64,000 nucleotides of DNA from Syntrophorhabdaceae bacterium (GCA_963666485.2 CAXXUO010000002.1:448001-512000), one strand, 5' to 3'; shown: positions 10,003 to 45,899, numbered from the stretch's first letter. Made by a program: numbers and translations. Notes: generated by a model not told the origin, from the letters alone.

Positions 10003-10705
10003 TCACAACGCGATCAGAGACGTCATAGCAACCCACCCCCAAAAGGCACGAAGGCTCCTTATCAGGCAGGGACACGAAAAGAACTCCCAGGACCTTATCG
10101 ATGAGGCCCGCAGACAGGGGGTTCAATTCCGCATAGTGCCCGGGGACGCCTTTACCAAGAAATGCGGCACGTCCCGGTCCCACATGTGCCTGGAATGTGA
10201 CGATTTCCAATACGCGGACCAGGACGGTCTCCTGAAAAGGCTCCATTCGATGGATTCCCCGTTCATAAGTGCGTTTGACGGGGTGAAGGACCCTCAAAAC
10301 CTCGGCAATATCGTCAGGACATCCGTATGCCTTGGGGTCGACGCCATCGTTATCCCCAAGGACCGTTCGTGCACGGTGAACGAGACGGTCACCAATGTTT
10401 CACGGGGCGCCGTTGAATTTGCCAAGGTAGTCAGGGTGACCAACCTTGCCCGTTACCTCGATTCTTTGAAAAAGATCGGGATATTCTGCTATGGACTCGA
10501 CGAACACGCCCGCACCGTACTCTGGGAGATCGATCTCAAAGGGCCGGTCTGCCTCGTCATGGGCGGTGAGGAAGGCTTGCGTCGCCTCACGAGGGAAACA
10601 TGCGATGATGTTGTCAGGATACCCACAAATCCCTCCTTTTCATCCCTCAATGTTGCCACGGCATACGCCATTGCAGCCTACGAAGTGATGAAGCGCAGAA
10701 AGTGA
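9986..10705 (+). CDS. rlmB: 23S rRNA (Gm2251) methyltransferase, TrmH/SpoU family
   Basis: DGVKDPQNLGNIVRT, VMGGEEGL, IP...SLNVATA SPOUT motifs. Confidence 0.88.
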   Translation: MPFLFNHNAIRDVIATHPQKARRLLIRQGHEKNSQDLIDEARRQGVQFRIVPGDAFTKKCGTSRSHMCLECDDFQYADQDGLLKRLHSMDSPFISAFDGVKDPQNLGNIVRTSVCLGVDAIVIPKDRSCTVNETVTNVSRGAVEFAKVVRVTNLARYLDSLKKIGIFCYGLDEHARTVLWEIDLKGPVCLVMGGEEGLRRLTRETCDDVVRIPTNPSFSSLNVATAYAIAAYEVMKRRK

Positions 10706-10747
10706 CGGCCGGGTATAAATCCGGCCCCGCGTTCTTATATTATCCTT

Positions 10748-28909: not shown

Positions 28910-29344
28910 TCATCTGGCAAGCTTTTTCTTGGTTTCTTCCACCTCGATGTCGGCTTCTTTCGACCGTTCGATCACGGACAGGACCCCTACCCATGTCTTC
29001 GACTGCGCAACGAGCGTGCTCTCGGGATATTCCCTGATGATCCTCTGGAACATGGCCCTTGATCTCCGGTAATCTTTCCGCGGGTTCTTCTGAGTGGCAT
29101 AGATAAGCCCCATATTGAACAGGGCCTGATCGGCCGGGGCCTTGTGATCGGAACGAACAAGAATGCTCTGGTTTAATTTAAGGCTGTTCTCGAATTCCCC
29201 CCGCGCATAGAGATTGGCGGCACTTTGAAGATCGGCCGAGAATGTGTCGGTTTTGACGGTTGCACATCCCAGGAACCCGGAAACGATCAATGCCGCAAGA
29301 ATACAGTGAATGTGCTTCCTTTTCCCGGTTCGCTTTCGACCCAA
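28910..29344 (-). CDS. TPR lipoprotein (QseG/YfhG-like partner of the kinase)
   Basis: Lipobox FLGC, ALFNMGLIY, IIREYPES; overlaps the 3' end of the kinase gene. Confidence 0.75.
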   Translation of the reverse strand: MGRKRTGKRKHIHCILAALIVSGFLGCATVKTDTFSADLQSAANLYARGEFENSLKLNQSILVRSDHKAPADQALFNMGLIYATQKNPRKDYRRSRAMFQRIIREYPESTLVAQSKTWVGVLSVIERSKEADIEVEETKKKLAR

Positions 29345-30741
29345 ATCCTGCCTCCATGTATATCGACGATATGCTTCGCAAGGGCAAGGCCAAGGCCCGT
29401 GCCCTTAGTCCCGGCCCGTGCGGCCGCGTCGCCCTGCCGGTATTTATCGAATATTGCCGCCCGGTCCTCCGGGGATATCCCCGGTCCGGCATCGGTCACG
29501 GCAAATTCAAGCCCCCCGTGTGCAGACCTCAAGGACACGGCGACCCTTGAGCCGTCCGGTGAATATTTTACAGCATTTCCCAAAATATTCCGAATTACCT
29601 GGAGCATCTTTTCGGGATCGATCCTGACGGGCGGTATATCACCGGAATAATCGAATTGAAAAAAAATATCCCGGGATGCATAGAGCGGTTCGATCTCCGC
29701 GACGGCCTTTTTCAATAAGGGCTTTATATCGTGCAACGCCATATCGAAATCCCCGACGCCAGCCTCTATTTTGGACAGATCGAGAAGCGTATTGACCTGT
29801 TGAATAAGCCGGTTGCATTCCTCGGCCATGATGGCCAATATTTTTTGTATATCGTCCGCCGAGCGGTCCGGATGCTTCTGCAGGAGCGTTATCCCTGCCT
29901 TCATAGATGCAAGCGGGGTACGCAGTTCGTGGGTCATAAGGGCGAAAAAATCGGATTTGATCTTCTCTGTCTCAGCCAATTGCTCACTCATTACATTCAG
30001 GGCGTGTGCCAGTTCCCCGATCTCGGGTGGAGATGATATCGCGAGCGGGTCTTCGAATTTCCCCCGTGCTATCTGCCGCGTCTTCCTCTTGATGATCGAC
30101 AAAGGCTTCGTGATGCTCCGCGTAACGCTCCAGGCAATAAGGACACCAAGAAGCAGGGAACACAGGGCCATGGTCATTGCGGTCCTGAGCGCCCGCTTCC
30201 CTGATCTGCCCAATGTCTCGATCCCTGCCTTGGTGCTGGCGGCCGTGGCGAGCTCCAGTGCTTTTATCTCTTTTATGATCGCATCAATATTTGACCCTTT
30301 CTCCGCCTTATACGTGCCGGCCCGGTAGGGTTTGCCCGAACTGATATATCTTTCTTCCTCCTTTACCAGCGCTGTATAGCGGGTATGGATATTATCTATA
30401 CCTTCCAGTAGTTCCCTGCTGCCCAGAGAATCAGAGACCGCCCGGGCCTCTGCAAGAGAACTGGCAAAGTCTTTCCCGGCATGCACGAAATGATCATACA
30501 GCGCCCTCTCCTTCGAAATGATATATTTCTTTTCGAATGTTATCTCGGAAAGCAATGCATCGCTCAGCCGGTCCTTGCACGCGAGCATCTTGTCCCCCGC
30601 TTCAAGCATGCGAATACCGGCCCTGTTGAAATGGTCTAATTTTACAATGGAATAAAAGGTTACCGATGTCGTTACGATAAAGAGTGCACTGAACCCGACG
30701 ATCAATCGGCCTGGTACGTTCAATTTAGCAAAACTGCCCAT
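29287..30741 (-). CDS. HAMP-domain sensor histidine kinase (GlrK/QseE-like)
   Basis: 2 TM, HAMP, THELRTPL H-box, NAVKYS, DAGPGI, GTGLGL. Confidence 0.92.
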   Translation of the reverse strand: MGSFAKLNVPGRLIVGFSALFIVTTSVTFYSIVKLDHFNRAGIRMLEAGDKMLACKDRLSDALLSEITFEKKYIISKERALYDHFVHAGKDFASSLAEARAVSDSLGSRELLEGIDNIHTRYTALVKEEERYISSGKPYRAGTYKAEKGSNIDAIIKEIKALELATAASTKAGIETLGRSGKRALRTAMTMALCSLLLGVLIAWSVTRSITKPLSIIKRKTRQIARGKFEDPLAISSPPEIGELAHALNVMSEQLAETEKIKSDFFALMTHELRTPLASMKAGITLLQKHPDRSADDIQKILAIMAEECNRLIQQVNTLLDLSKIEAGVGDFDMALHDIKPLLKKAVAEIEPLYASRDIFFQFDYSGDIPPVRIDPEKMLQVIRNILGNAVKYSPDGSRVAVSLRSAHGGLEFAVTDAGPGISPEDRAAIFDKYRQGDAAARAGTKGTGLGLALAKHIVDIHGGRIWVESEPGKGSTFTVFLRH

Positions 30742-30802
30742 TTATACTGCTCTTTACTGCAAAACAAAGATATAATGACCCCCCCGGGGGGGGCAGGGTG
30801 GA

Positions 30803-31312
30803 TCATTTAAACTTCGATATCCGGTAGTCCGTATAATCCTGTTCAGTTTTCCAAACATCCGCAACATTCTTCGGCACATTGCCTTTATAATGTTTTTCAA
30901 GGTCGGCCCACAATTTATCTGCATCTTTCTGAAGGCTCTTTATTTTTTCTTCCAGCATATTCTTCCTGCCTTGGGCCGACTGTTCCTGCTCTTTTTTTTC
31001 ACGGTTCACTTTCTCTTCATTGAGGACGTCGCGAAAGTCAATTCCTCTCGTACTTCTGTCAGGGTTTTCAATCCTGTAGATTTCCTGGTGCGCGGCAACC
31101 ATCTCGGAATTTATACTCCGGAATTTCTTGAGAGACTGGGTCGTTACGTCATCAAGCGCACTTGCCGATTTTTTTGCGGCCACATTCCCGTCGGTGGCGG
31201 GAGCTCCTTTCACATCCGCGGATTTCCCCGTATCGGCGTCCCACGGAAATACACAGGGCGTATATCCTATCACCAGACCAAAGATCAACAGAGTGGACCA
31301 TGCAATCTTCAT
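30803..31312 (-). CDS. Exported coiled-coil hypothetical protein
   Basis: RBS GGGAG, signal peptide MKIAWSTLLIFGLVIG. Confidence 0.65.
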   Translation of the reverse strand: MKIAWSTLLIFGLVIGYTPCVFPWDADTGKSADVKGAPATDGNVAAKKSASALDDVTTQSLKKFRSINSEMVAAHQEIYRIENPDRSTRGIDFRDVLNEEKVNREKKEQEQSAQGRKNMLEEKIKSLQKDADKLWADLEKHYKGNVPKNVADVWKTEQDYTDYRISKFK

Positions 31313-31394
31313 TCTTTTCTCCCGGAGATTAAAAATAACCACGTCAATCGTCAGTATTAGACATATCACTCCACGGAAGATTTGTAAATCCAAT

Positions 31395-32321
31395 TTATTT
31401 GATCGACTGAAGATAGATCCGGAGATTCACTTTCTTATGCTTTATCTTAAGCTTTGCGCGTATGTTGTTGCGATAACTGTTGACAGCACTTGATGCCACG
31501 CCCAGCATATCGGCGATCTCTTTCGTGTTTTTGCCGTCTTTTATGAGGCTCACAACCTCCACCTCGCGGGGGGTAAGATTGAACTGGCCGACATTCTTTA
31601 TCAGGGGAGACATGATGTCATTGGTATTGTTCTCAATCATTTCAAGGAAATAATATATCTCCGGGTCGGGACGGCTCTTTTTCATCTTTTCGATATACGG
31701 AAAGATCCGGCTTTTAAGATTTGCAATGAATACCTGCTCGAGGGCCTTCTTTTCCTCTTCCACTTTTCTTAGCAGTACCCTAAGGGCTATGTTGGCCTCT
31801 TCAAGGGCGGAGGTCTTCTGATCGAGTTCACGGGTACGGTCCCGGACCAGTTCTTCGAGGCCGTTATGATGTTTCTTTAATTCCTGTTCACTTCTCAGCA
31901 ATCTCTCGGTTAATTTTTCACGACGGGAAATGTCGAGGACATAACCAAGGTAGTGGCTTGTATTGCCCCCTTCATCCCGCATAATGGTTGTCCTGTCCTC
32001 GAGCCACACCGGGGAACCGTCTTTCCGGACGATCCTGTATGGTTTGTGGATAAACCTGTATGCACCCTTTTTGGTTGCGGTTGCGACTTCCCGCTCGACA
32101 CGACGCCTGTCCTCCGGGTGAAGGATATCCGCGTAAAGAACGGCGCCCGATAAGAAATCTTCCGGTGAAAATCCAAAGACTTCCTCTACGTTTGGCGAGA
32201 CATATTCAACAGGCCAGCCCGGTCCGTTGAACCATTTAAAAACAACGACCGGGCCCGAAAGAAAGATATGCCATATTTTCTGTTCGAAATTTTCAGTCTT
32301 TACACGGGCGGAACGCCTCAT
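31395..32321 (-). CDS. PAS + LuxR-HTH transcriptional regulator
   Basis: PAS/PAC, LEEANIALRVLL coil, LTPREVEV...KNTKEIA...RNNIRAKL. Confidence 0.9.
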   Translation of the reverse strand: MRRSARVKTENFEQKIWHIFLSGPVVVFKWFNGPGWPVEYVSPNVEEVFGFSPEDFLSGAVLYADILHPEDRRRVEREVATATKKGAYRFIHKPYRIVRKDGSPVWLEDRTTIMRDEGGNTSHYLGYVLDISRREKLTERLLRSEQELKKHHNGLEELVRDRTRELDQKTSALEEANIALRVLLRKVEEEKKALEQVFIANLKSRIFPYIEKMKKSRPDPEIYYFLEMIENNTNDIMSPLIKNVGQFNLTPREVEVVSLIKDGKNTKEIADMLGVASSAVNSYRNNIRAKLKIKHKKVNLRIYLQSIK

Positions 32322-32430: not shown

Positions 32431-32507
<77 letters not shown>

Positions 32508-32624: not shown

Positions 32625-34589
32625 ATGAAAATAAAACGACGGCATGGCACGTATTTTATCGGAATCGGCGTCACCATTATATTCATCGTGCTTGCCCTTA
32701 TAAGATTCCTGCCATTTGAGCGCCTCGAATTGCTTCTTTACGATGTGCGCTACCAGCTTCGGGGTAAATCCCCGGCGCCCGCAGAAATTGTCATTGTCGG
32801 GATCGATGACCGGAGCCTGCAAGCTATAGGAAGATGGCCCTGGGACCGGGACAAGATGGCCGATCTCGTAACCCGGGTAAATTCGCTGGGGGCGCGGGTC
32901 ATCATGCTCGATCTCATTTTCAGCGAACCATCCCCCCATGATGCCAACCTGGCAAAGGCCGTTAAACAGAAAGGAAACGTCGTCCTGCCTTTCGTTTTCG
33001 ATTTCGAGGGAAATCCGTCTTCGCGCATGGACGATGCCTTTCTCGACAATGCCTTCCTTGTGGTCAAGAATGAGAACCTTTTCAACATACACAGGCCTAT
33101 AAAAGCCAAAGGCGTCCTTCTGCCGATTCCCGCATTTGGGCAAGGCGCCGGGGCAATGGGATACATCAATATGCTCCCCGATGCGGATGGGAAGCTTCGG
33201 TGGGAACCTCTCGCCATAGAATACGAAGGCCAGCTTTATCCCTCCATGGATCTGCAGGTCGCCCGGATGTATAAAGGGATCTCCCCGGCAGAAATGAGCA
33301 TTAACGCCACCGATTCGGTCACTTTAGGAAAGTCCGTTCTGAAGACCGACCCGTTCGGAAAGATGCTTATTCCCTATTACGGTCCTCACGATACATTTCC
33401 CATCATCTCCGCCCTCGACATATTTGAAGGAAAAGTCGATCCCGGATCGATCCGTGACAAGATCGTACTCATCGGCCCGACGGCGGTCGGGATACACGAC
33501 AAGATCGTGAGCCCCTCTTCGGCCCTCATGTACGGCGTGGAAAAACATGCACACATGATCGGCGCTATCCTGCACGGGCAAAATATCCGGTTCGTCGGCC
33601 GGCTGATGAATATCATGGTCATCCTTCTTGTCGGAATTATCTTCACGTTGTTCATGGTTAACCTGCGGGCCGTCACGGGCGCCGCCATGGCGGCTGTCTT
33701 CATAATCGTTCTTTTTACCACCGGGTATATCCTGTTCTTCATATCGCGGCTCTGGATAGATATCAGCTATGCGGGCAATGCGGTCATTCTCATATATTTC
33801 GTGGCGACTGCCTACCGGTACGCAACGGAAGAGCGCTACGCCCGGCAGATACGGAGCATGTTCTCGAGTTATGTCACGGAAAAGATAGTCAACGAACTCA
33901 TCAAGAACCCGGACCTCGCCAAGCTCGGTGGTGAAAAACGGGAAGTGACGGTGCTCTTTTCCGACGTCAAGGGGTTTACAAACTTCTCGGAGCATCATTC
34001 CCCGGAACAGGTCGTCGCCATCCTCAATGAATACCTGACGGAAATGACGAACATCATCATCCGCTGGGACGGCACGCTCGATAAATTCGTCGGGGACATG
34101 ATCGTTGCCTTCTGGGGCGCACCCCTTAACCAGCCTGACCATGCCGAACTGGCTATAAAATGTACCTTGCATATGAAACAGCGGCTTGCCCAATTGCGGG
34201 AGAACTGGATGAAGCAGGGGCGAGTCCCTCTCGATGCAGGCTTCGGGATCAATACCGGCGAGGTACTCGTGGGAAACATCGGTGCCGAAGGAAAAAAAAT
34301 GGACTACACTGTCATCGGGGACAACGTGAACCTCGGTTCACGCGTGGAAGGATTGACCCGTAAATACGGCTGCGACCTGATTATCACGGAGGGTACGCTC
34401 AACAAGATCCGGACGCAGCTCGAAGAAAACAAATTTGGCCACATGCTTGTGCGCGGCCTCGATATTGTCGCGGTGAAGGGGAAAGCGGAACCGGTCCGCA
34501 TCTACGAGGTGTCCTCCCTGGACGAGGGGAGCAGCTGCCAGATAATAGAATGTGAAGAGAAAGAGGCCACAGTCTTTAAAGAAAAATAG
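32625..34589 (+). CDS. CHASE2-domain adenylate/guanylate cyclase
   Basis: IVIVGIDD..L..IGRWPWDR, DADG, KIVLIG, GVEKHA, 3 TM, FSDVKGFT, DKFVGD, GDNVNLGSRVE. Confidence 0.93.
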   Translation: MKIKRRHGTYFIGIGVTIIFIVLALIRFLPFERLELLLYDVRYQLRGKSPAPAEIVIVGIDDRSLQAIGRWPWDRDKMADLVTRVNSLGARVIMLDLIFSEPSPHDANLAKAVKQKGNVVLPFVFDFEGNPSSRMDDAFLDNAFLVVKNENLFNIHRPIKAKGVLLPIPAFGQGAGAMGYINMLPDADGKLRWEPLAIEYEGQLYPSMDLQVARMYKGISPAEMSINATDSVTLGKSVLKTDPFGKMLIPYYGPHDTFPIISALDIFEGKVDPGSIRDKIVLIGPTAVGIHDKIVSPSSALMYGVEKHAHMIGAILHGQNIRFVGRLMNIMVILLVGIIFTLFMVNLRAVTGAAMAAVFIIVLFTTGYILFFISRLWIDISYAGNAVILIYFVATAYRYATEERYARQIRSMFSSYVTEKIVNELIKNPDLAKLGGEKREVTVLFSDVKGFTNFSEHHSPEQVVAILNEYLTEMTNIIIRWDGTLDKFVGDMIVAFWGAPLNQPDHAELAIKCTLHMKQRLAQLRENWMKQGRVPLDAGFGINTGEVLVGNIGAEGKKMDYTVIGDNVNLGSRVEGLTRKYGCDLIITEGTLNKIRTQLEENKFGHMLVRGLDIVAVKGKAEPVRIYEVSSLDEGSSCQIIECEEKEATVFKEK

Positions 34590-34612
34590 ATCCCCGAAAA
34601 TCTACCTGTATT

Positions 34613-36238
34613 TCAGAACCGGGTCCCGGGTGCATACGCCTTGCCGGACGCTGTGCCATTAAGGGTGGAACCTGATGTGTATGTACCGTTGGCTTTACCG
34701 TCAAAAGCAGTTTGCAGCTGATTATATGGCGGAGACCCCATTTTTCCGGCGGGTACGTTGCCGTTCAACACTGTGCCGGTCCATTGCACACCATTACAAG
34801 AATCGAACCTGAAGGTGGCGGTCGACCCTACAGGAGAAGAAGATGTCATCGCATACGTGCTCCCGGCTGCGGATGACGGGACTATCCCGCCAACCCGCGC
34901 AGTCCAGGAATAAGGGGCCGCGCCGGCACCGGTCCCCCAGAATCTGATCTGACTGAGGGTTAAGCTGTACGGACTCCCCATCCAGTAGATGCTCGATATG
35001 GCGCCTACCTGGATCGTTTGCGTCACGACCGGGTCCTGTGTGAGGGTGCTCGGCACGACGCCTGATGCAGTTCCGTTGATACTCCCTGTTCCTGCGACAA
35101 CACCGCCGAACGTGCCCGAAGCCGTCCCGCTGAATGAAAAAGCCTGTTTGTAACCTCCAACGCCTGTAGGAGCCGAACCGTTGGAAATGGTCGCGTTCCA
35201 TGTACCGCTATATTCACCGGTGTCGGAGCCGCCATTAACATTGACAAAAGCCGACGTGCCGTTTCCGCTCGCAATGAAAGCGAATCCATTACGCGTTCCG
35301 CCGTGGAAATTCCAGTAATTGCCCGTGACGGAATCCGCCTGCCAGATCGTCGGCTGACCGGTCATGCTGGGACCGTAGAATTTGACATTGTTAATGGATA
35401 CTGTGATACCCGTTTCAGAATTCCCGATCCCGCCCGTCATATACGGGACACTCCCCACGAAGACGTTCGGAATCGTCGTCAATATCGTCGGGGGAGGCGT
35501 GGTGGTGAATGTCTCGCTTATGGGATTCGCCATGGCCGTCTGGACCACGATATTGTTCGGCCCTGCGACGCTCGTACCCGGGCCGGTGCCGGGTGCAGGA
35601 CCACCTGACCCTCCGACGTACGATACATTGCCGGGGACGGGGCGCGAGGGCATACCGCCAAAACCGACAACGAAGGAGACGAAACCGGCGCTGACATTCT
35701 GTACGATCCCCGGCTGGTTCGGGTTATAGAAGTAACCACGTCCTGTCGAGAAGAAAAGGCCTGTTATCATCTGGGCAAAGCCCACGGTCATCCCGGAGCC
35801 GCGGATGCCGGCGACGGCATTGGGTGTATGGACCTCGAACTTGTTCCCTTCCGCGAAGGACGATACCTTTTTGACGAATTCCTGGCTCGATACTGCCTCG
35901 ACCTTGCCCCGGTCCATCTTCATGACCTGGTTGCTCCGGGTCCCGTCATCGGAATACTGACTTATCTGGATGCGGGTTGCCGGGTGTATCCTGAGGATGT
36001 TCTTGTTGAAGAACGTTATTTCAGCCCGTGAGTTCGTCTTGGCACGGAAGATGTCCCCGACGTCGACGTTGTCCCCGGGGGACACGTTGCCGACCGTGCT
36101 CTGCCCGGCTTTCAGGACATCGACCCTGCCTTCGAGCTTCGTGATCTTTCCGACGGGGGCGGCATTAACGAGGATAGGCAGGAGGAATAGAAGAAAGGCC
36201 AGAAATAAAATTGCTCTTACATTTAATGTTTGCAACAT
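34613..36238 (-). CDS. FecR-domain exported protein, paralog 1 (two C-terminal beta-rich repeats)
   Basis: Signal peptide, VGKITKLEGRV, FEVHTPNAVAGIRGS, G/P/T linker, two repeats ending GTASG. Confidence 0.88.
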   Translation of the reverse strand: MLQTLNVRAILFLAFLLFLLPILVNAAPVGKITKLEGRVDVLKAGQSTVGNVSPGDNVDVGDIFRAKTNSRAEITFFNKNILRIHPATRIQISQYSDDGTRSNQVMKMDRGKVEAVSSQEFVKKVSSFAEGNKFEVHTPNAVAGIRGSGMTVGFAQMITGLFFSTGRGYFYNPNQPGIVQNVSAGFVSFVVGFGGMPSRPVPGNVSYVGGSGGPAPGTGPGTSVAGPNNIVVQTAMANPISETFTTTPPPTILTTIPNVFVGSVPYMTGGIGNSETGITVSINNVKFYGPSMTGQPTIWQADSVTGNYWNFHGGTRNGFAFIASGNGTSAFVNVNGGSDTGEYSGTWNATISNGSAPTGVGGYKQAFSFSGTASGTFGGVVAGTGSINGTASGVVPSTLTQDPVVTQTIQVGAISSIYWMGSPYSLTLSQIRFWGTGAGAAPYSWTARVGGIVPSSAAGSTYAMTSSSPVGSTATFRFDSCNGVQWTGTVLNGNVPAGKMGSPPYNQLQTAFDGKANGTYTSGSTLNGTASGKAYAPGTRF

Positions 36239-39200
36239 TTTTCAGCCTCCTCATACAGACTTTTCTTCGCCAAAAATACGGCCCATGTCACGAACCAACG
36301 ACTTTATTGTCCTTATATATTTTTATCGTAACACGATTTATCGTTTTTGTTAAGGGTATGCTTTTCCCGAGGCTGTACCCGTACTAATACTGCGGCTGCC
36401 GCTTACCGTATACGTACCCGAGGCCTGTCCGTCGAACCTCGTCGCTGTCTGGTTATAAGGAAGAGCCCCCATTCCGCCGGCGGGCACATATCCATTCGTC
36501 ACTGAATTGGTCCACGATCCGGTGGTGGGTGTTATGGCAGTTGAGGAAGTCATCGTAAGAGTAGCGGTTGTCCTTGGACTCCCGCCTGACACGGGTGCAG
36601 GTACATGGGGACTTCCGGTAGCCCTATCCCCATAAATCAGCGCGGACCATGCATAGGGTAATCCATTCACGCTCGATCCCCAGAATTTTATATCGTACAT
36701 CTTGACATAGTTATAATACGGTGAACCGCCTGTTACACTGATTTGCGATACATAGCCCACCAAGACATTCGGCGTCGCGGGGGGCGGTGTGGTGGTTAAT
36801 GTCTGGTTTATGGGATTTGCTATGGCCGTCTGGACGACGATATTATTCGGCCCGGCTACGGTCATTGTGCCAGTACCGGTGCCGGGTGCAGGGCCTCCTC
36901 CTGGCCCGGCGACATACGACACGTTGCCGGGAACGGGGCGTGATGGCAGTCCGCCTGTACCGATAATAAAGGAGACAAAGCCGGCACTGATATTCTGTAC
37001 GATCCCCGGCTGGTTCGGGTTGTAAAGGTAACCCCGCCCTGTTGAAAAGAAGACGCCTGTCGCCATGTTTGCGAAAGCAACGGTCATGCCGGAACCACGG
37101 ATACCTACCGCTGCATTGGGTGTATGGACCTCGAACTTGTTCCCTTCTGCGAAGGACGATACCTTTTTGACGAATTCCTGGCTCGATACCGCCTCGACCT
37201 TGCCCCGGTCCATCTTCATGACCTGGTCGCTCCGGGTCCCGTCATCGGAATACTGACTTATCTGGATACGGGTTGCCGGGTGTATCCTGAGGATGTTCTT
37301 GTTGAAGAACGTTATTTCAGCCCGTGAGTTCGTCTTGGCACGGAAGATGTCCCCGACGTCGACGTTGTCCCCGGGGGACACGTTGCCGACCGTGCTCTGC
37401 CCGGCTTTCAGGACATCGACCCTGCCTTCGAGCTTCGTGATCTTTCCGACGGGGGCGGCATTAACGAGGATAGGCAGGAGGAATAAAAAAAAGATCAGGA
37501 AGCCAACAAATCTCAAAGTGAACCTTTGCAACATTCTTTCTCCTTATTTTTCCCTGTTCAAAGGACGGTTATTTTTCAGATATTGCCCTGCGGGATGCCT
37601 GTTAGCACATTTTTCTATAAACCGCCGACATGGCTGGACCGCCACAAAAGACTCCCGCGTAGACCTTTTTGCAGCCGCAACGACGAGCAATGTGTGCGAA
37701 GTAGATCGAAGCCGGTTAGTGGGAGCCTCTTTTTCTTAAACTCGTGACCACCGGTTTTTTATAATCAACGACCAGTACCCCCTGAAGCGGTACCCACAAT
37801 TGAGTTGTAACCACCACTCGTCGTATATGTACCCGCCGCCCTTCCATTAAACCTTGTTGCTGCCTGATTATTTGGGGTGGCACCCATTCCACCGGCGGGA
37901 ACTACGCCGTTGTTCACGTACGCCGTCCACGATCCGCCGCTCATCGAATTTAAATTCATCGTCGCGGTCGATGTCGGTGTCCCGCCTGACAGGTTATATG
38001 CTGTCGTGTAGCTTGACGTCGATCTGCTGCCATCCACCTTTCCGGTCCATGCGAAGGGTTGGGCACCGACGCTCGGTCCCCAGAATTTTACCTGGTACAG
38101 GGAGATAAAGTCATAATACGGGGGGCCGGACGAAGCGGACATACTTGCTATGGCGCCCACCTGTACGGCCTGGGTCACTATCGGGTCCTGTGTGAGGGTA
38201 CTCGGCACGACGCCTGATGAGATACCGGACAGCGACCCGGTATTAAGCCAGTTCGCGGCCCATGTCCCCGAGGCGGTCCCGCTGAATGTGAAAGGCTGCC
38301 TGTACTGCCCCACACCCGTCGGCGCGCTGCCGTTGGCGACCGTTGCCGTCCACGTCCCGCTATAATCCGTGTCGCTTCCCGTTGCCCGGACATATGCGGA
38401 CATGCCTCCTCCGGAAACCATAAAACCAAAACCCCCCGGAGTCGGCCCGGGGATATTATAAAATCTTCCCGTGACAGAATCGGCCTGCCATGTTGTCGGC
38501 TGACCGGTCATGCTGGGACCGTAGAATTTGACATTGTTAATGGATATATTCAAGCCGATATCGGCGTTGCCTACACCGCCCGACATATACGGGACACTCC
38601 CCACGAAGACGTTCGGAATCGTCGTCAATATCGTCGGGGGAGGCGTGGTGGTGAATGTCTCGCTTATGGGATTCGCCATGGCCGTCTGGACCACGATATT
38701 GTTCGGCCCTGCGACGCTCGTACCCGGGCCGGTGCCGGGTGCAGGACCACCTGACCCTCCGACGTACGATACATTGCCGGGGACGGGGCGCGAGGGCATA
38801 CCGCCAAAACCGACAACGAAGGAGACGAAACCGGCGCTGACATTCTGTACGATCCCCGGCTGGTTCGGGTTATAGAAGTAACCACGTCCTGTCGAGAAGA
38901 AAAGGCCTGTTATCATCTGGGCAAAGCCCACGGTCATCCCGGAGCCGCGGATGCCGGCGACGGCATTGGGTGTATGGACCTCGAACTTGTTCCCTTCCGC
39001 GAAGGACGATACCTTTTTGACGAATTCCTGGCTCGATACTGCCTCGACCTTGCCCCGGTCCATCTTCATGACCTGGTTGCTCCGGGTCCCGTCATCGGAA
39101 TACTGACTTATCTGGATGCGGGTTGCCGGGTGTATCCTGAGGATGTTCTTGTTGAAGAACGTTATTTCAGCCCGTGAGTTCGTCTTGGCACGGAAGATGT

Positions 39201-39310
39201 CCCCGACGTCGACGTTGTCCCCGGGGGACACGTTGCCGACCGTGCTCTGCCCGGCTTTCAGGACATCGACCCTGCCTTCGAGCTTCGTGATCTTTCCGAC
39301 GGGGGCGGCA
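35438..39310. repeat. 727-bp apparently identical repeat (35438-36164 and 38584-39310), plus a near-identical 373-bp copy (37113-37485 vs 35817-36189)
   Basis: Constant offsets of 3146 and 1296; shadow ORFs in the track are identical at offset 3146. Confidence 0.9.
36350..37534 (-). CDS. FecR-domain exported protein, paralog 2 (one C-terminal repeat)
   Basis: Same FecR N-domain, single C-terminal beta-rich domain. Confidence 0.88.
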   Translation of the reverse strand: MLQRFTLRFVGFLIFFLFLLPILVNAAPVGKITKLEGRVDVLKAGQSTVGNVSPGDNVDVGDIFRAKTNSRAEITFFNKNILRIHPATRIQISQYSDDGTRSDQVMKMDRGKVEAVSSQEFVKKVSSFAEGNKFEVHTPNAAVGIRGSGMTVAFANMATGVFFSTGRGYLYNPNQPGIVQNISAGFVSFIIGTGGLPSRPVPGNVSYVAGPGGGPAPGTGTGTMTVAGPNNIVVQTAIANPINQTLTTTPPPATPNVLVGYVSQISVTGGSPYYNYVKMYDIKFWGSSVNGLPYAWSALIYGDRATGSPHVPAPVSGGSPRTTATLTMTSSTAITPTTGSWTNSVTNGYVPAGGMGALPYNQTATRFDGQASGTYTVSGSRSISTGTASGKAYP

Positions 39311-39381
39311 AAGGCAAGATTTGCGAAAGTAAATAGAATTGCACACACCAGAAAGAGGTACTGCAAAATTATTCTTTTCAT
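37765..39381 (-). CDS. FecR-domain exported protein, paralog 3 (two C-terminal repeats)
   Basis: Same FecR N-domain, different signal peptide and C-terminal repeats. Confidence 0.88.
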   Translation of the reverse strand: MKRIILQYLFLVCAILFTFANLAFAAPVGKITKLEGRVDVLKAGQSTVGNVSPGDNVDVGDIFRAKTNSRAEITFFNKNILRIHPATRIQISQYSDDGTRSNQVMKMDRGKVEAVSSQEFVKKVSSFAEGNKFEVHTPNAVAGIRGSGMTVGFAQMITGLFFSTGRGYFYNPNQPGIVQNVSAGFVSFVVGFGGMPSRPVPGNVSYVGGSGGPAPGTGPGTSVAGPNNIVVQTAMANPISETFTTTPPPTILTTIPNVFVGSVPYMSGGVGNADIGLNISINNVKFYGPSMTGQPTTWQADSVTGRFYNIPGPTPGGFGFMVSGGGMSAYVRATGSDTDYSGTWTATVANGSAPTGVGQYRQPFTFSGTASGTWAANWLNTGSLSGISSGVVPSTLTQDPIVTQAVQVGAIASMSASSGPPYYDFISLYQVKFWGPSVGAQPFAWTGKVDGSRSTSSYTTAYNLSGGTPTSTATMNLNSMSGGSWTAYVNNGVVPAGGMGATPNNQAATRFNGRAAGTYTTSGGYNSIVGTASGGTGR

Positions 39382-39439
39382 CGCATCACCTCAAGACTAT
39401 AAATACGTTATTGCTTCACAAAGCCGCCTGTGCTTCGGT

Positions 39440-41029
39440 TTAAAACCGGTACTCAATACCCAGTCCATAGATTTCACGGGTATAATCGTATAAATCTATG
39501 TTCGATTTATTCCTCCAGTAATTATACTGCAGAACAAGATCGGTATTCTTGTAAATGCCGTAGAGAAGGGCAAAATTGAAGCTGTAAATCTCATCCCGTC
39601 TTGTATCGCCAAAATAGGTATTGTCGTACTTGTAATTTACGAAAGCCGCGTCCAGTGAACCCTGGGCCCTTAACGTGCCTATTATCGGGTATAGCGCATC
39701 GACACCGAACCGGTTTTCAGTATTCACCCAGTTGCGCCCTATCGTATCGTCCTGGGCATACAGGTATCTCAGGGTCACGAATGCTTTGCTGTCTTTGAAG
39801 GTATACGTCCAGCCAAGGCTCCCGGAATAACGGTTCCCGCTTCGGTCCTCACCGTCGGGAGGCTCCGGGTGCAGTTCGGTATCGAAGTATTTCTTACGCA
39901 TGTACCCGACGCTTACCTCGCCGTAACTGTTTGGCGTGGTAATGAACCTGAACGTCGGGGTTACAGATTTTGCTTCAAGATAACGCGTCTGGTTCCACCA
40001 GTTCAACTCCTGGTAAAACATGTTCCCTTTTACACCCTGGAGACTGACATAGGAATATGTAAGCGGTATACTGAATCCGAAGCGGTCCCATGAGTAGCCG
40101 GGAACAACGCTGAAGGTGTTCGTCATGTTGTTATACTCGGTCAAGTTGCCCCGCGACCCGTCGGCCCGGTTATACATCTTGCCGAGATACCGGTCGGTAT
40201 AGAACGAATAATATGCCGAAAGACTGAACGGTGTTTTGTAAGAAAATGGCGCGGTATAACCAATCCTGGCACCGAAATTAAGGGCGCTGTCCGCCTGCCC
40301 CGACATGAGGTCGGTCATGGGGCCGGCCCCTACAATCGGCACGTTCGTATCGTACTTGTATCCCGTACCGACAGCGAACCGCCAGACCTTTTCGCGTTCC
40401 GCCCTGTCGGCGACCTGTTTCTCGTAGTCCCGTGCGTATAATGCCGCGTCCGTCGCGGGATCGAGGTTGATCGTTGCGCGCAGGCGCGACTGGGCTTCCT
40501 TATATTTCCCCTGTTCCGTGTATATGCCGGCGATCTGAAGCTCGGCCTGCTGTGATAATTTAGGGTCAAGTTTTTTGGCCGTCTCAAACGACTGGATCGC
40601 CTCATCGGGCTTTTTTGCCTTGGCAAAAACCATGCCTTTCAGGAAATTGAAGCGGGCCGTATTTATTCCTCCCTTATCACCAACCTCGATCCACTTTTGA
40701 GCCTCTGCCAGGTTGCCCGTATGGTACAGGACATCGACGAGCTCAACGACGGCGTCATCGATGCGTGGAGTTAAGGTCGCGGCATCCCTGAAATAGGGAA
40801 TTGCCTCATTGTATTTTTCCATAACCTTATATGTGAGGCCGATCTGATAGGCTATCCGGGACGATGTCCTGTCCGCTTCTCTCGCTTTAAGGAAATACGC
40901 CAGGGCCTCTTCGTAATTCTCCTGTTGGAGTTCCTTGAGGCCCTCATCAAAGGCAGTCTGGGCGCGCAGGCAAGGAACCAGTGTAAACAGGAGAATAGCG
41001 GCCAGGGAAATCATGGCTATTTTTTTCAT
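39440..41029 (-). CDS. TPR + outer-membrane beta-barrel protein, Slam/DUF560 (T11SS)-like
   Basis: Signal peptide, several TPRs, YKYDTN barrel start, C-terminus NKSNIDLYDYTREIYGLGIEYRF. Confidence 0.8.
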   Translation of the reverse strand: MKKIAMISLAAILLFTLVPCLRAQTAFDEGLKELQQENYEEALAYFLKAREADRTSSRIAYQIGLTYKVMEKYNEAIPYFRDAATLTPRIDDAVVELVDVLYHTGNLAEAQKWIEVGDKGGINTARFNFLKGMVFAKAKKPDEAIQSFETAKKLDPKLSQQAELQIAGIYTEQGKYKEAQSRLRATINLDPATDAALYARDYEKQVADRAEREKVWRFAVGTGYKYDTNVPIVGAGPMTDLMSGQADSALNFGARIGYTAPFSYKTPFSLSAYYSFYTDRYLGKMYNRADGSRGNLTEYNNMTNTFSVVPGYSWDRFGFSIPLTYSYVSLQGVKGNMFYQELNWWNQTRYLEAKSVTPTFRFITTPNSYGEVSVGYMRKKYFDTELHPEPPDGEDRSGNRYSGSLGWTYTFKDSKAFVTLRYLYAQDDTIGRNWVNTENRFGVDALYPIIGTLRAQGSLDAAFVNYKYDNTYFGDTRRDEIYSFNFALLYGIYKNTDLVLQYNYWRNKSNIDLYDYTREIYGLGIEYRF

Positions 41030-41145
41030 GGAACCCCCGTTTAGCCAGTAAATTATTGTTGGTATTAAAAGCTTTTAACAAATCTTTACCTGGTTGGCAA
41101 GGGAAATAGTAGGGAAATCGCTGAAAAAAAACCGCAACGGGAAAT

Positions 41146-41913
41146 TCAGACCGTGAGCGTCTCGTCCTGCTTCAATATTCGTATGTTACCCCTGCCTGAC
41201 CGGGTAAATTCCCGGACGATCTCCCTGCCGAATATCGGCTTGATGTGGGTGACATAAAAAATTCTGTCACTAAGGTCATAGCGATCAATCGTTTCCATGA
41301 GGATCGACGGGGTCATATGCCCTGATATCAACGCGAGGTCTTTCAGGCGGTCCGGGAATGAAACATCCGCGATAATAAAACGAATGTCCTTTTCATCGCG
41401 GGCAAACTCCCAGAACCTCTTCGTCGGCCCCGTATCCGCGGTGAACATGAACCCCTGGCCATCGGGCTGCCGCACCACGTATCCCACCGTGTAGACGGTA
41501 TGGGTCATGAGGATAGGTTTTACTGTGATGCCGTCCAGGTCTGATAACTTTTCGAGGGGTATATCCCGCAGCTTTATTATCGCGTCCATCGCGGAGGGGA
41601 TGACGGTAAAGTCAGGCCATATCAGGTTGTTAAGCAGGTTGTTGGTTATGATATCGAGAACACGGGCGGCACTGACGAGCTCGATGCTGTGCCCTCCCAT
41701 CATGGCAAGTTCATCAACGAGCGGGAAAAGCCCTTTGAGGTGGTCCATGTGGGTATGGGTAACCAGGATGTGCCTTATTTCCAGGAGATCTTTCCGGCGG
41801 ATCGAGTCCGTGGTTGTCCCTGCGTCGATAAGCAGGGACCTGTCAATCAGAAAACAGGTCGTCCTATGTCTGCCGACATAATTGCCGGAACAGCCTAGGA
41901 TTTTTATGTTCAT
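41146..41913 (-). CDS. 3',5'-cyclic nucleotide phosphodiesterase, MBL fold (class II-like)
   Basis: IKILGCSG, LIDAG, THTHMDH, HTV, TADTG, DVSFP, GHMTP, THIKP. Confidence 0.85.
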   Translation of the reverse strand: MNIKILGCSGNYVGRHRTTCFLIDRSLLIDAGTTTDSIRRKDLLEIRHILVTHTHMDHLKGLFPLVDELAMMGGHSIELVSAARVLDIITNNLLNNLIWPDFTVIPSAMDAIIKLRDIPLEKLSDLDGITVKPILMTHTVYTVGYVVRQPDGQGFMFTADTGPTKRFWEFARDEKDIRFIIADVSFPDRLKDLALISGHMTPSILMETIDRYDLSDRIFYVTHIKPIFGREIVREFTRSGRGNIRILKQDETLTV

Positions 41914-42078
41914 TAGCTGATTGTACGTGATGCCCTGCAAACGTGTCAAGACATTGTAATCAATAATGTAAAACCCGCAAGATTGCGAAACGATATATTT
42001 TGGCAACTATCACTTGACGGTGCCAGCCGAAAGCATTATATTACTGAGACTTAGAAACATTTTTGTTGGAGGAACACC

Positions 42079-42399
42079 ATGCCTATCTATGAATACCAGT
42101 GTACGGACTGTGGAAAAACGTTCGAGATCTTCCAGAAGATAAGCGATGAACCACTTACCGAATGCAAGGTATGCAAGGGACGGCTTACAAAGCTTATCTC
42201 GAATTGTGCGTTTCATCTCAAGGGAACCGGTTGGTACGTGACCGACTACAAGAAACCTGTTGATACCGCAGGCAGGAACGGCAGCAGCAAGCCCGTCGAA
42301 AAGACCGAAAGCACCCCTGCTCCGGTACCCGAGGCAAAGACCGAAACAAAGACCGAATCCACCACAGCTACATCGACTGCCGCAGGAGGCGCAGCATGA
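42079..42399 (+). CDS. FmdB-family zinc-ribbon regulatory protein
   Basis: [12 protein letters not shown]...CKVC...[13 protein letters not shown]; promoter TTGACG-17-TATATT at 42014-42042. Confidence 0.92.
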
Positions 42400-42548
42400 C
42401 AAAAGGCGATAAAGTGACATTCCCGTTCGGAAAAAAGACCATGGAAGGTACCGTGGAGCAGGTCAACCAGAAGACCGTCTACCTAAGGGCCGACTTCCCG
42501 AAACAGAAGGGGAAATTGGTTATCAGGAAGATAAAAGACGTCAAGTAA
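42396..42548 (+). CDS. Small 50-aa hypothetical protein (SH3/KOW-like), absent from the ORF track
   Basis: RBS AGGAGG, ATGA overlap; [50 protein letters not shown]. Confidence 0.8.
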
Positions 42549-42674: not shown

Positions 42675-45600
42675 TTAGTAGTAATCTTGGAGCGCCCGCA
42701 CCCTTAGCGTCCCGTTTTTCATCGCTTCGATGGCGTTGACCACTGCCTGCGCGCCTGAGAGTGTCGTGGTGTACGGGATCTTGTGCTGTACGGCACCGGA
42801 GCGGATCGCAACCTCATCGACTTTCGGGTTTCTCCCGCTCGGGGTGTTTATTATATATTGGATCTGGCCGTTCTTGATCATATCGACGATGTGCGGCCTG
42901 CCTTCGGATACCTTGTTCACGAATTTCACGTCTATGCCGTTGTTTACAAGTGCCTTGCCCGTACCTTTCGTGGCACATATACTGAAACCGAGGTCCGACA
43001 GTTTCTTGGCGATGAAGACGATGTTCCGCTTGTCCTTGTTCTTGACGCTCAAGAACACGGTCCCCTCGGACGGGAGGTCCTGACCGGCTGCAAGCTGGGA
43101 TTTCCAGAAGGCCATGCCGAAATTCTCGTCAATCCCCATTACCTCGCCCGTGGATTTCATCTCGGGGCCGAGTATCGTATCGACCCCGCTGAACTTGTTG
43201 AAGGGGAAAACCGATTCTTTCACGGCCATATGTTTCGGGACACGCTCTTTCTCTATTCCGAGGTCCTTCAAGGTCTTGCCAACCATCAATTTGGCGGCCA
43301 CCTTCGCCCACTGGACCCCCGTTGCCTTGCTCACGAACGGAACGGTCCGGCTTGCCCGCGGGTTTACCTCGAGGACGTAGATCATGTCGTCCTTTACCGC
43401 ATACTGGATATTCATCAGGCCGACGACGTTCAAACCCCTGGCGAGGCGATGGGTATAATCGCGGATCCGCTCGAGGACCCTGTCATCGAGGGAATAAGGA
43501 GGGAGCGCCGATGCGCTGTCCCCCGAATGGATGCCGGCCTCTTCTATGTGTTCCATGATCCCGGCGACCACGCACTGGTCCCCGTCAGCCACCGCATCGA
43601 CATCGATCTCGATAGCCTCTTCGAGGAATTTATCGATGAGGATAGGCTTTTCGGGTGACGCCTCCACGGCCCGCTCCATGAAAGACGCAAGGTCTTCGTC
43701 ATTGTACACGATCTCCATCGCCCTCCCGCCAAGCACGTAGGACGGCCTCACGACAACCGGGAAACCGATGGACGCGGCTATCTTCCGGGCTTGTTCAAAA
43801 GACGTCGCGATCCCGTTCTCGGGCTGGCGGAGGTCAAGCTTCTTGAGGAGCCTCTTGAACTTGTCCCTGTCTTCCGCTACGTCGATACTTTCCGGCGTCG
43901 TTCCAATGATCTTGGCCCCGGCTTTTTTCAGAGCTGTCGCCAGGTTGAGCGGTGTCTGCCCGCCGAACTGCACGATAACCCCGTCCGGTTTTTCCGTGTT
44001 CGCTATATCGAGGACATTCTCGAGGGTCAAAGGTTCGAAGTACAGTTTGTCCGACGTGTCGTAATCCGTGCTCACGGTCTCCGGGTTGCTGTTGACCATG
44101 ATGGTCTCGAAACCCAGCTCCTCGAGGGCAAAGGCGGCGTGCACGCAGCAATAATCGAACTCGATACCCTGCCCTATCCTGTTCGGGCCCCCGCCGAGGA
44201 TCATGATCTTTTTCCTGTCGGACACGCGCGATTCATCCTCGATCTCATAGGTCGAATAAAAATAGGGCGTATAGGCCTCAAATTCCGCCGCGCACGTATC
44301 GACAAGCTTGAAAACGCTTGTGAGCCCCATGCGCTTCCTCAGGTCCCTTATCTCCTGCTCGCCGGTCCCCGTTATTTCGGCTATTTGCCTGTCGGAATAA
44401 CCGAGCCGTTTGGCCTTCCTGAGGGTCTCGAATGAAAGAATGTCATCACTGCCGGGCTGTCGGGCGATATTCTTTTCCAATTCTTCCTCAAAGAGAACTA
44501 TCTCTTCGATATTCTTGAGGAACCACCGGTCAATCTTCGTTATCTCGTAAATCTCGTCTATATTCATACCAAGGCGGAACGCGTGCCGCATGTAGAACAT
44601 CCGCTCCGCATTCGGGACGATCAGCTTCTTCCGGACATGATTGAGGTCATCCTTCCCTGCAAGCTTTTCATGGACGAGGCCCGACCTGCCTACCTCGAGC
44701 GAGCGCAAACCTTTCTGGAATGCCTCCTTGAACGTCCTCCCGATAGCCATGGCCTCGCCGACCGATTTCATCGCGACCGTCAGCGTCTCGTCCGCATCCC
44801 TGAATTTTTCAAAGGTGAACCGCGGGATCTTCACAACACAGTAATCTATGGTCGGCTCGAACGAGGCCGGGGTCTGCTTTGTAATGTCGTTCGGTATCTC
44901 GTCGAGCGAGTATCCTACGGCAAGCTTTGCCGCTATCTTGGCGATAGGGAACCCTGTCGCCTTCGATGCGAGGGCGGAGCTTCTCGATACCCTCGGGTTC
45001 ATCTCGATAACGACTATCCTGCCGTTGTCCGGGTCGACCGCGAACTGGATGTTGGAACCGCCCGTCTCGACACCGATCTCGCGGATGATCTTGATAGACG
45101 CATCGCGCATGACCTGGTATTCCTTGTCGGTGAGGGTCTGGGCCGGCGCGACCGTGATGCTGTCGCCGGTGTGGATCCCCATGGGGTCAAGGTTCTCGAT
45201 GGAGCAGATGATGACCACGTTGTCGTTGCGGTCCCGCATGACTTCGAGCTCAAACTCCTTCCATCCGATAACCGATTCCTCGATAAGGATCTCGGTGATA
45301 AGGGAGCTTTCAAGGCCCTTCTGGGCGAGGGATTCGAACTCTTCCATGTTGTAGGCAACCGACGCGCCTGTACCGCCAAGAGTAAAACTGGGACGGATGA
45401 TAAGGGGGAAGCCGATCTCGCGGGAGACTTTACGGGCATCTTCCATCGTATAAGCAAGGCCGCTTCGCGGGACTTCGAGGCCTATTTTTTCGATGGCCTC
45501 CTTGAATTCCTCGCGGTCCTCCGCCTTTTTTATCGCTTTATAATCGGCGCCGATAAGCTCGACACCATATTTTTCCAGAATGCCCCGTTCCGAGAGTATC

Positions 45601-45899
45601 GTCGCGAGATTAAGCCCCGTCTGCCCGCCGAGGGTCGGAAGGATCACGTCCGGTTTCTCCGCCTTTATTATCTCTTCGATAACCTCGGGTATGAGCGGTT
45701 CGACGTACACCCTGTCAGCCATGTCGGGGTCGGTCATGATCGTGGCCGGGTTCGAATTAACGAGAACGACCCGGTACCCCTCTTCACGGATCGCCTTGCA
45801 GGCCTGGCTTCCCGAATAGTCGAATTCGCACGCCTGGCCTATGACGATCGGGCCCGACCCGATGATGAGCACGCTCTTTATGTCTGTTCTTTTAGGCAT
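42675..45899 (-). CDS. carB: Carbamoyl-phosphate synthase large subunit
   Basis: [18 protein letters not shown], two ATP-grasp halves, MGS domain. Confidence 0.98.

Follow-up and report, generated by a model that had tools for sequence, protein, structure and literature searches.

A CHASE2 adenylate cyclase locus with three FecR-domain proteins and a Slam-like barrel in a Syntrophorhabdus-like anaerobe: a candidate trans-envelope cAMP pathway

The DNA described here is a window of 64,000 nucleotides (nt) from a Syntrophorhabdaceae bacterium (GCA_963666485.2, CAXXUO010000002.1:448001-512000), an uncultured Syntrophorhabdus-like anaerobe of the former Deltaproteobacteria; all positions are counted within this window. 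Between 32625 and 41913 it carries six genes, of which one on the plus strand, coding for a CHASE2-type cyclase, is convergent with five on the minus strand. The latter specify a putative cyclic AMP (cAMP) phosphodiesterase, an outer-membrane protein with tetratricopeptide (TPR) repeats and a β-barrel, and three paralogous proteins with a FecR domain. The genes are listed below with the lengths of their products in amino acids (aa) and their Pfam matches.

32625..34589, plus strand: CHASE2 and class III cyclase protein, 654 aa (CHASE2 218.7 bits; Guanylate_cyc 79.6 bits)
34613..36238, minus strand: FecR paralog 1, 541 aa (PF04773 32.1 bits)
36350..37534, minus strand: FecR paralog 2, 394 aa (PF04773 32.1 bits)
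37765..39381, minus strand: FecR paralog 3, 538 aa (PF04773 31.8 bits)
39440..41029, minus strand: outer-membrane TPR and barrel protein, 529 aa (TPR families; SlipAM 26.3 bits; BBP2_2 34.2 bits)
41146..41913, minus strand: hydrolase of the metallo-β-lactamase fold, 255 aa (Lactamase_B_2 49.6 bits; PDEase_II 31.5 bits)

All six genes had been proposed in a sequence-only reading of the window, and the end coordinates given there proved exact. That reading had the genes converging on the cyclase across 24 bp; the strands are indeed opposed, and the distance from the cyclase stop to the stop of the last FecR gene is 23 nt. The profile search it proposed, made with hidden Markov models (HMMs), gave PF04773 at about 32 bits for all three paralogs (cut-off 24 bits), PF04575 at 26.3 bits (cut-off 22) and CHASE2 at 218.7 bits. 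Its claim that no extracytoplasmic function (ECF) sigma factor or TonB-dependent receptor lies nearby holds for the 45 open reading frames (ORFs) of the window included in the domain scan (eleven short ORFs were left out), where neither the ECF sigma r2 domain nor a receptor of the TonB-dependent type was matched. The longest ORF of the cyclase starts at 32430, and its first 65 codons overlie a minus-strand tRNA-Arg(ccg) gene (32431-32507), a read-through artefact; because the tRNA occupies these positions the start was set at 32625, where the earlier reading had also placed it.

Hydropathy predicts that the cyclase possesses a first transmembrane (TM) segment at residues 9-30, a periplasmic CHASE2 domain of about 295 residues (31-325), three TM segments and a cytoplasmic catalytic domain. 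Residues D447, K487, D491, T562, N569 and R573 are invariant among 23 homologues; these we take to be the metal, substrate and transition-state residues of an adenylate-type class III enzyme. The host genome contains four CHASE2 genes, and only the one in the window is adjoined by FecR genes.

The translated hydrolase displays an H-x-H-x-D-H motif and no signal peptide. Its match to PDEase_II (PF02112), 31.5 bits against a cut-off of 23.7, covers profile positions 83-166 of 340 only, and a homologue at locus L059 of the survey described below reaches 62.2 bits over positions 82-283. The protein scores 36 bits against the NCBIfam equivalog NF041851, the cut-off of which is 400, and 64.6 bits against RNase Z models, which is more than its NF041851 score yet far under their own cut-off. 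Because both scores fall so far short, it is from the context that we infer a cyclic nucleotide as the substrate. A promoter-like site by this gene (41949-41920) matches at 11 of 12 positions, in a region where the count of such sites is not above that in shuffled sequence.

The translations of the three FecR proteins all begin with a signal peptide ending in A-x-A and lacking a lipobox, followed by the FecR head (residues 27-200 approximately), a linker rich in Pro, Gly and Thr, and one or two C-terminal modules. The linker, of about 55 residues, contains no charged residues at all; these make up 20% of the head and 5-7% of the tails. The C-terminal unit, here called the tail module, is approximately 135-140 aa long and is present once in paralog 2 and twice in each of paralogs 1 and 3. 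The positions of these elements, and of a block of apparent gene conversion, are as follows.

35039-35467 and 34616-35038, minus strand: tail modules of paralog 1 (from the paralog alignment and the module alignment, A5)
36353-36769, minus strand: single tail module of paralog 2 (from the AlphaFold2 model and fold searches)
38191-38613 and 37768-38190, minus strand: tail modules of paralog 3 (from the paralog alignment)
35519..36148, minus strand: putatively gene-converted block of about 630 nt, FecR head and linker of paralog 1 (direct repeats 3146 nt apart)

The block at 35519-36148 is identical at the nucleotide level to approximately 38665-39294 in paralog 3, both sets of bounds being approximate. 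Compared by codon, paralogs 1 and 3 are 100% identical over aligned codons 31-240, while identity drops to 53% in their signal peptides and 45-80% in the tails; paralog 2 agrees with the other two at 98-100% over codons 31-120 and at about 80% beyond. Because the head is nucleotide-identical while the signal peptides and tails differ, the pattern carries the signature of gene conversion, which would keep the head constant as the tails diverge. In contigs assembled from four runs of one sample, read depth over the repeat unitigs is about 2-3 times that over unique sequence, and the three distinct tails were recovered without differences. These contigs break at the repeated head, such that the gene order is not confirmable from them, and since the single sample behind the four runs may be the window's own source, the read support is not independent.

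An AlphaFold2 model of paralog 2 (mean predicted local distance difference test score, pLDDT, of 64) shows a well-predicted head (residues 30-191), a disordered stretch (205-255) and eight strands within 257-393. It was compared with 48,161 chains using VIA-align, and additionally by Foldseek. In the former the head resembles the cell-surface-signalling domain of PupR (6ovm; Z 15.8) and the anti-sigma protein BDI_1681 (4m0h; Z 13.7), and residues 26-132 align with 5ix9 at Z 11.2 (root-mean-square deviation 1.7, 72/76 residues, 21% identity). Foldseek returned 5ix9 for the head with a probability of 1.00 and a target TM-score of 0.78. This structure is RIN, the N-terminal periplasmic plug of the Marinomonas ice-binding RTX adhesin MpIBP, which has been proposed to be too large for TolC, and hence to plug the pore and retain the adhesin on the cell (PMC5550230). 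Prediction of a complex between CHASE2 residues 31-325 and FecR head residues 27-204 (score 0.14, mark 0.32) counts neither for nor against binding.

The tail module, represented by an alignment of 20 sequences (A5), finds nothing credible in Pfam or among the sequences of the Protein Data Bank (PDB), with best E values of 0.012 and 0.36, respectively. Its model in paralog 2 comprises eight strands at a pLDDT of approximately 45-74, and the best structural matches are NspA (Z 5.5), CarO (5.1), OprH (4.9), PagL (4.6), streptavidins and dirigent proteins. Because these Z scores fall within the range that the tool labels "common," fold class alone is suggested, namely that of an eight-stranded barrel. 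The module is composed of 24-31% hydrophobic and 6-12% aromatic residues, the corresponding values for the neighbouring membrane barrel being 37% and 20%.

Searching 1.84 billion representatives with the A5 profile yielded 571 proteins at E ≤ 1e-3, of which 524 were found at E ≤ 1e-10. Among the best 150 of these 571, which range from 141 to 3614 aa, the last module lies no more than 10 residues from the C-terminus in 147 and no more than 20 in 149, and two or three copies are present in 34. An N-terminal FecR head was recognized in 80 of the 150 (79 by HMM and one more by Pfam). No head was seen in the other 70, of which 19 do not begin with Met; these headless proteins could be fragments from short contigs or could possess a different N-terminus.

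The outer-membrane protein consists of a signal peptide, a periplasmic TPR domain (residues 25-212 approximately) and a barrel (216-528). Its AlphaFold2 model, made with 30 family members (pLDDT 84.2), has helical repeats up to residue 212 and 14 strands between 216 and 528. The Slam barrel also has 14 strands. The SlipAM (PF04575) match extends over profile positions 1-278 of 288 and that to BBP2_2 is confined to the C-terminal third of its profile, and in the ESM Atlas the clusters nearest to residues 205-529 are SlipAM (score 0.96, 194 shared features). Precomputed domain lists for the barrel family include PF04575 in 10 of 51 members and PF24575 in 6 of 51. The best Foldseek matches are BcsC (E 8.4e-13), OmpG and PelBC, with the 14-stranded OmpG as the best barrel-only match. 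A search of the PDB sequences with the family profile was dominated by TPR proteins and is uninformative on the barrel.

An alignment search restricted to the barrel revealed a second such protein in the same genome, 535 aa in length and 42% identical to the first, which is encoded on contig C1 together with a giant FecR-head protein.

contig C1 871781-885578 (L050:4781-18578): second barrel gene, followed after 4 bp by the gene for a 4061-aa FecR-head protein

The FecR head of the 4061-aa protein is 47% identical to that of paralog 1, and behind it are found a Big_13 domain and sixteen lactonase-type propeller stretches with NHL repeats. The last 105 residues or so (3955-4059) match the tail module (E 8e-4). 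No CHASE2 gene was found near this second pair; a gene for a GAF histidine kinase lies downstream.

In close relatives, 14 loci were recovered from metagenome-assembled genomes annotated as Syntrophorhabdus or deltaproteobacterial, with barrels 68-84% identical to that of the window. In each of the 11 loci long enough to show it, the barrel gene is accompanied by a FecR gene, or two, and by the cyclase in convergent orientation; the phosphodiesterase is present in 12 of the 14. A survey across the phylum produced a barrel match in 71 of 401 genomes; 40 loci were examined, 35 of them from other orders. A FecR-head gene stands beside or near the barrel in 32 of these 40 loci by HMM, and in 33 with the inclusion of L060, where it was detected by Pfam; several of the FecR genes are cut by contig ends. 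The CHASE2 cyclase is found in 16 of the 40, the phosphodiesterase in 7 and a detectable tail module in 14. All 16 FecR-head proteins submitted to Pfam matched PF04773 over its cut-off, and in the long ones Big_13, Big_3_3, PKD, Y_Y_Y or filamin-type domains were recognised. Most of the longer FecR-head proteins further bear the module of about 135 aa at their C-terminal end, and the Ig-like and propeller repeats of the giant members are of kinds typical for surface proteins. Where a cyclase adjoins the pair it is always of the CHASE2 type, and it is co-directional in L069, L078 and L080. The co-conservation expected by the sequence-only reading is thus borne out in the phylum for barrel and FecR gene, and in part for the cyclase.

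Seven of the 40 loci contain no FecR gene by HMM or Pfam. The sequence stops at the barrel in L054 and continues for only 1.2 kb past it in L046; in L061 (8381-10582) a Crp-type cyclic-nucleotide regulator directly follows the barrel gene; L076 and L081 have a ParA-like gene by the barrel; and the neighbours in L082 and L083 are unrelated. At L060 (3336-7951) the genes after the barrel encode, in order, a VpsT-like response regulator, a PilZ protein and a protein with FecR and immunoglobulin (Ig)-like domains. The gene arrangement, which recurs in 11/11 close loci and in other families of the phylum, is not due to chance. Because pairs of barrel and FecR genes occur without a cyclase, and the tail module is absent from some FecR proteins encoded beside one, the pair is the core of the system, to which the cAMP genes are often, though not always, added.

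Several published systems share parts with this locus. In Sinorhizobium meliloti, the outer-membrane protein NsrA, whose barrel the authors assign to residues 600-1200, and CHASE2 cyclases are both reported to be needed for perception of a plant signal (PMC7529298, PMC13001267); a FecR domain has been described in SMc02177 and TPR repeats in SMb20495 (PMC5498481). On the S. meliloti megaplasmid CP140944.1 (L091:3228-8770) the gene for a 1197-aa protein annotated as "FecR domain-containing protein" overlaps the annotated cyaK by one base at its start, and its product contains a FecR domain at residues 66-160 and TPR repeats at about 400-530. Judging from its size and position this protein is probably NsrA, in which case the window would hold a split form of a pathway already characterised by genetics. 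The window cyclase is 29.7% identical to the annotated CyaK over 90% of the query. Both the window locus and the NsrA-CyaK/CyaD1/CyaD2-Clr system combine an outer-membrane protein with a CHASE2 adenylate cyclase, with FecR, TPR and predicted barrel elements in each; whereas S. meliloti has these three, the barrel according to the authors, in one protein, here the FecR and TPR-barrel parts are separate genes, and the FecR gene is triplicated and provided with C-terminal modules. A further difference is that no Crp-family counterpart of Clr (cNMP_binding plus Crp helix-turn-helix) was detected among the 45 ORFs, the search having covered the window only. Using hhalign, no match was obtained between the barrel alignment A4 and the last 638 residues of the S. 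meliloti protein (probability 0.2; a single sequence, hence of low power), and against alignment A2 the TPR part alone was matched. No longer, fused form of the window barrel family was found among 1234 candidates, which is weak evidence.

In Campylobacterota, clustered genes for a CHASE2 adenylate cyclase, a cAMP phosphodiesterase and FecR-domain and TPR proteins have been reported, and a single pathway was suggested (PMC9239204). We liken that cluster to ours by its gene content as described there. It differs in that, in the portions of that paper cited here, it is noted without a mechanism, the TPR protein is not called a Slam-like barrel, and tail modules, giant forms or paralog arrays are not mentioned.

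The cargo of type 11 secretion is defined by a C-terminal eight-stranded barrel, and verified cargo comes, as reported, from only one of ten clusters of outer-membrane proteins (PMC12282271); Slam has been proposed to recognise a C-terminal motif of the unfolded cargo (PMC9090332, Fig. 6). With the type 11 systems (Slam1/2, NilB, HrpB, TepS) the locus shares a TPR domain joined to a PF04575 barrel, a Sec-dependent neighbour with a variable part, and a C-terminal module predicted, at low confidence, to have eight strands. It differs from them in its Syntrophorhabdus-like host, in a partner that is not a lipoprotein, carries a head of FecR fold and lacks a TbpBBD or lipoprotein C signature, and in that no TonB-dependent receptor or metal-uptake genes were found here. 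Two papers on type 11 secretion (PMC12282271, PMC8406197) make no mention of a cyclase, CHASE2 or FecR, and in the cited part of a related preprint (10.1101/2023.03.15.532718) FecR is the classical regulator. A literature search found no paper joining "CHASE2" with "DUF560."

The RTX adhesins LapA and MpIBP offer another parallel, possessing a C-terminal export signal, a giant repetitive middle and a folded periplasmic N-terminal domain. Those proteins, in contrast, contain RTX repeats and leave the cell by type 1 secretion via TolC-like pores; the scanned ORFs, both those of the window and those next to the giant gene, revealed no ABC exporter, no RTX repeats and nothing like LapG or LapD. 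The resemblance is one of working principle, not of membership. With the FecR/PupR anti-sigma regulators the paralogs share a periplasmic FecR fold, whose contact in the classical systems is the periplasmic signalling domain carried by a barrel protein of the outer membrane. Here, however, a cleavable signal peptide directly precedes the FecR domain, and there is neither an anti-sigma domain nor a membrane span; classical FecIR/TonB cell-surface signalling was rejected, there being no anti-sigma domain and, among the 45 ORFs scanned, no ECF sigma factor or TonB-dependent transducer. The BiofilmReg operon of Burkholderia is described as encoding a response regulator, a LysM-FecR protein and a CHASE2 histidine kinase (PMC5192318). 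It is alike in placing a secreted FecR-domain protein beside a CHASE2 sensor, and differs in its histidine kinase output, in the LysM domain on the FecR protein and in that no TPR-barrel is described in the part of the paper cited (PMC5192318).

Taking these data together, our preferred though still tentative reading is that the locus is a split, NsrA-CyaK-like trans-envelope cAMP pathway arranged around a type 11 (Slam)-like outer-membrane protein. Its parts merit different degrees of trust. That the barrel and the FecR protein are functionally paired is very probable; we lean slightly towards the FecR head acting on CHASE2; and export of the tails is an even call. In its most specific form, which we regard as possible if somewhat doubtful, a type 11-like translocon would stall on the FecR plug, and the fast-diverging eight-stranded modules or giant adhesin-like arrays outside would be physically coupled to a head gating the CHASE2 cyclase, the whole serving as a tethered sensor of contact or ligand.

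The steps of such a mechanism may be outlined. Following the published Slam model, the tail would be fed C-terminus first through the barrel, with the strictly C-terminal module serving as the export tag of a type 11-like channel. The FecR head would fold in the periplasm and be unable to follow; because the head stays there, the protein would end up threaded through the barrel, modules outside and head inside. The head might then sit against the TPR domain of the barrel protein and the periplasmic CHASE2 domain, and binding or pulling at the surface modules could alter the contact between head and CHASE2 and thereby the synthesis of cAMP. The cytoplasmic phosphodiesterase would remove cAMP and reset the signal. 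The three paralogs would represent three alternative surface tails on one transducer, and gene conversion would keep identical the part which meets the shared partners.

A number of observations weigh against this reading. Some concern the likeness to Slam: the PF04575 match is marginal, falling to 23 bits in a six-frame search; TPR_Slam (PF24575) reaches 19.4 bits against a cut-off of 35.2, generic TPR families being strong; no solved Slam chain is among the Foldseek matches listed; and SlipAM was matched in only one of four distant barrels scanned and not in the paralogous barrel of the same genome, which matches DUF2860 and BBP2_2. Others concern the tail module, which in sequence resembles neither TbpBBD nor lipoprotein C, is modelled with low confidence, and has integral membrane barrels as its best structural matches, at Z scores in the range termed "common." The sequence-only reading, which had a Slam-like barrel displaying the variable C-terminal domains on the surface, therefore stands in part. 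On the barrel, the PF04575 score over cut-off, the 14 strands and the SlipAM clusters of the Atlas support it, and the marginal score and the relatives without a match do not; on the cargo, the strictly C-terminal position and eight predicted strands agree with it, and the low-confidence model and missing TbpBBD signature do not. Of the outcomes that would have told against its central idea, two were examined, namely genes not conserved together and a barrel unlike Slam; neither refuted the idea, which is partly supported.

The remaining objections concern the coupling to cAMP, which appears facultative. No FecR match lies near the other three CHASE2 genes of the genome, and 24 of the 40 phylum loci have no CHASE2 gene within the stretches examined; because so many barrel-FecR pairs occur without a cyclase, signalling is not the sole use of the pair. 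Conversely, the module is missing from four short FecR proteins linked to a cyclase (L056, 271 aa; L059, 256 aa; L075, 260 aa; L079, 275 aa), from which it follows that export is not required for signalling everywhere. The synteny among close relatives says little, since carB is conserved beside the cluster there as well.

These same short proteins, standing by a barrel and a CHASE2 cyclase, speak for the best surviving alternative, in which nothing is exported: the FecR proteins would be soluble co-sensors or adaptors of CHASE2, the TPR-barrel an outer-membrane receptor or entry pore of the kind put forward for NsrA, with the head docked on its TPR domain, and the tails would bind ligands within the periplasm. 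Such an arrangement would also suit S. meliloti, where FecR, TPR and, according to the authors, barrel form one polypeptide with only the barrel loops exposed at the surface (PMC7529298), and all solved relatives of the FecR head are periplasmic domains. We nevertheless consider it rather unlikely. It gives no reason for the strictly C-terminal position of the module in 147 of the best 150 relatives, and leaves unexplained both the Slam likeness of the barrel and the proteins of 2000-4000 aa in which Ig-like or propeller domains lie between the same head and tail, with the same barrel adjoining. The contrast in charged residues between tails (5-7%) and head (20%) also speaks against it.

Unlikely, too, is a second alternative, in which barrel and FecR protein constitute a type 11-like system that exports or anchors surface proteins, and the cyclase and phosphodiesterase either control its expression or answer some other periplasmic cue, without contact between head and CHASE2. 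The loci without a cyclase, 24 of the 40 along with the second locus of this genome, speak for it, as do the other regulators met elsewhere: VpsT-like and PilZ proteins at L060, the Crp-type protein at L061 and the GAF histidine kinase after the giant gene. It is less easily reconciled with the constancy of the CHASE2 type in adjoining cyclases and their shared direction in L069, L078 and L080, with the overlap of the S. meliloti FecR-TPR gene and cyaK, or with the genetics reported to tie NsrA to CyaK (PMC7529298).

The structural matches of the module to NspA, CarO, OprH and PagL raise a third explanation, that it is an integral eight-stranded anchor of the OmpX/NspA type, inserted by the β-barrel assembly machinery (BAM) with the head beneath the outer membrane and the TPR-barrel acting as an assembly helper. 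This is very improbable: the module is poorer in hydrophobic and aromatic residues (24-31% and 6-12%) than the neighbouring membrane barrel (37% and 20%), it occurs in tandem, with two or three copies in 34 of the best 150 relatives, and thousands of Ig-like or propeller residues would have to sit in the periplasm. Finally, the idea that the TPR-barrel is a porin exporting exopolysaccharide, like BcsC, PelB or PgaA, and has nothing to do with the FecR genes was rejected as scarcely credible, for in spite of the top Foldseek matches to BcsC (E 8.4e-13) and PelBC and the reported assignment of PgaA homologues to PF04575 (PMC8406197), the barrel model has 14 strands, no glycosyltransferase or other polysaccharide genes are present among the 45 ORFs scanned and the conserved partner is a FecR gene.

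Some further features of the surroundings are recorded here. About 4 kb from the CHASE2 cyclase, a minus-strand gene at 25946-28786 encodes a 946-aa protein comprising a cyclic-nucleotide-binding domain, two GAF domains, a PAS domain and a second class III cyclase domain, which could relay or amplify a cAMP signal. Beyond the tRNA gene, the minus-strand region 29287-32321 specifies a HAMP histidine kinase (29287-30741) and a PAS-LuxR regulator (31395-32321); a 196-aa ORF without a family match (30803-31393, minus strand) has a relative that also lies beyond the cyclase in L001. On the other side, beyond the phosphodiesterase gene, is carB.

42675-45899: carB

Between the two lies a 136-aa, Cys- and Gly-rich ORF (42010-42420, minus strand) with no family match in Pfam or NCBIfam, which is probably not a gene. 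At L090 a 121-aa ORF (10492-10857, plus strand) situated between the barrel and FecR genes matches the barrel profile in two pieces and looks like a barrel remnant.

A four-gene cluster of the same kind is already in print for Campylobacterota, as described in the cited portion of that report (PMC9239204). What is new here is a FecR head with about 630 nt identical in two paralogs beside divergent tails, the C-terminal module, the cyclase-less pair with its 4061-aa protein, the phylum-wide counts, and the likeness of the head to PupR and to an RTX adhesin's periplasmic plug. As a sensor domain CHASE2 is widespread in bacteria, and the factors that it recognises are stated not to be known (PMC5192318). 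The locus joins this domain with type 11 secretion in a form that can be tested, since the parts reside on separate genes, the boundary between constant and variable regions is marked by apparent gene conversion, and the cyclase-less paralogous pair provides a built-in control. Should the model fail, the locus will still serve as a clean example of the clustered phosphodiesterase, FecR, TPR and CHASE2 cyclase genes that are in print but unexplained. If the translocon does stall on the FecR head, the tail-module proteins, amounting to at least 571 sequence clusters, would make up a large and so far undescribed group of type 11 cargo beyond the classical Proteobacteria. If the threaded sensor is real, a defined protein would provide the input to CHASE2, type 11 secretion would extend to more cargo and more taxa, and the combination of a C-terminal export signal with an N-terminal periplasmic plug would have arisen in a second secretion system.

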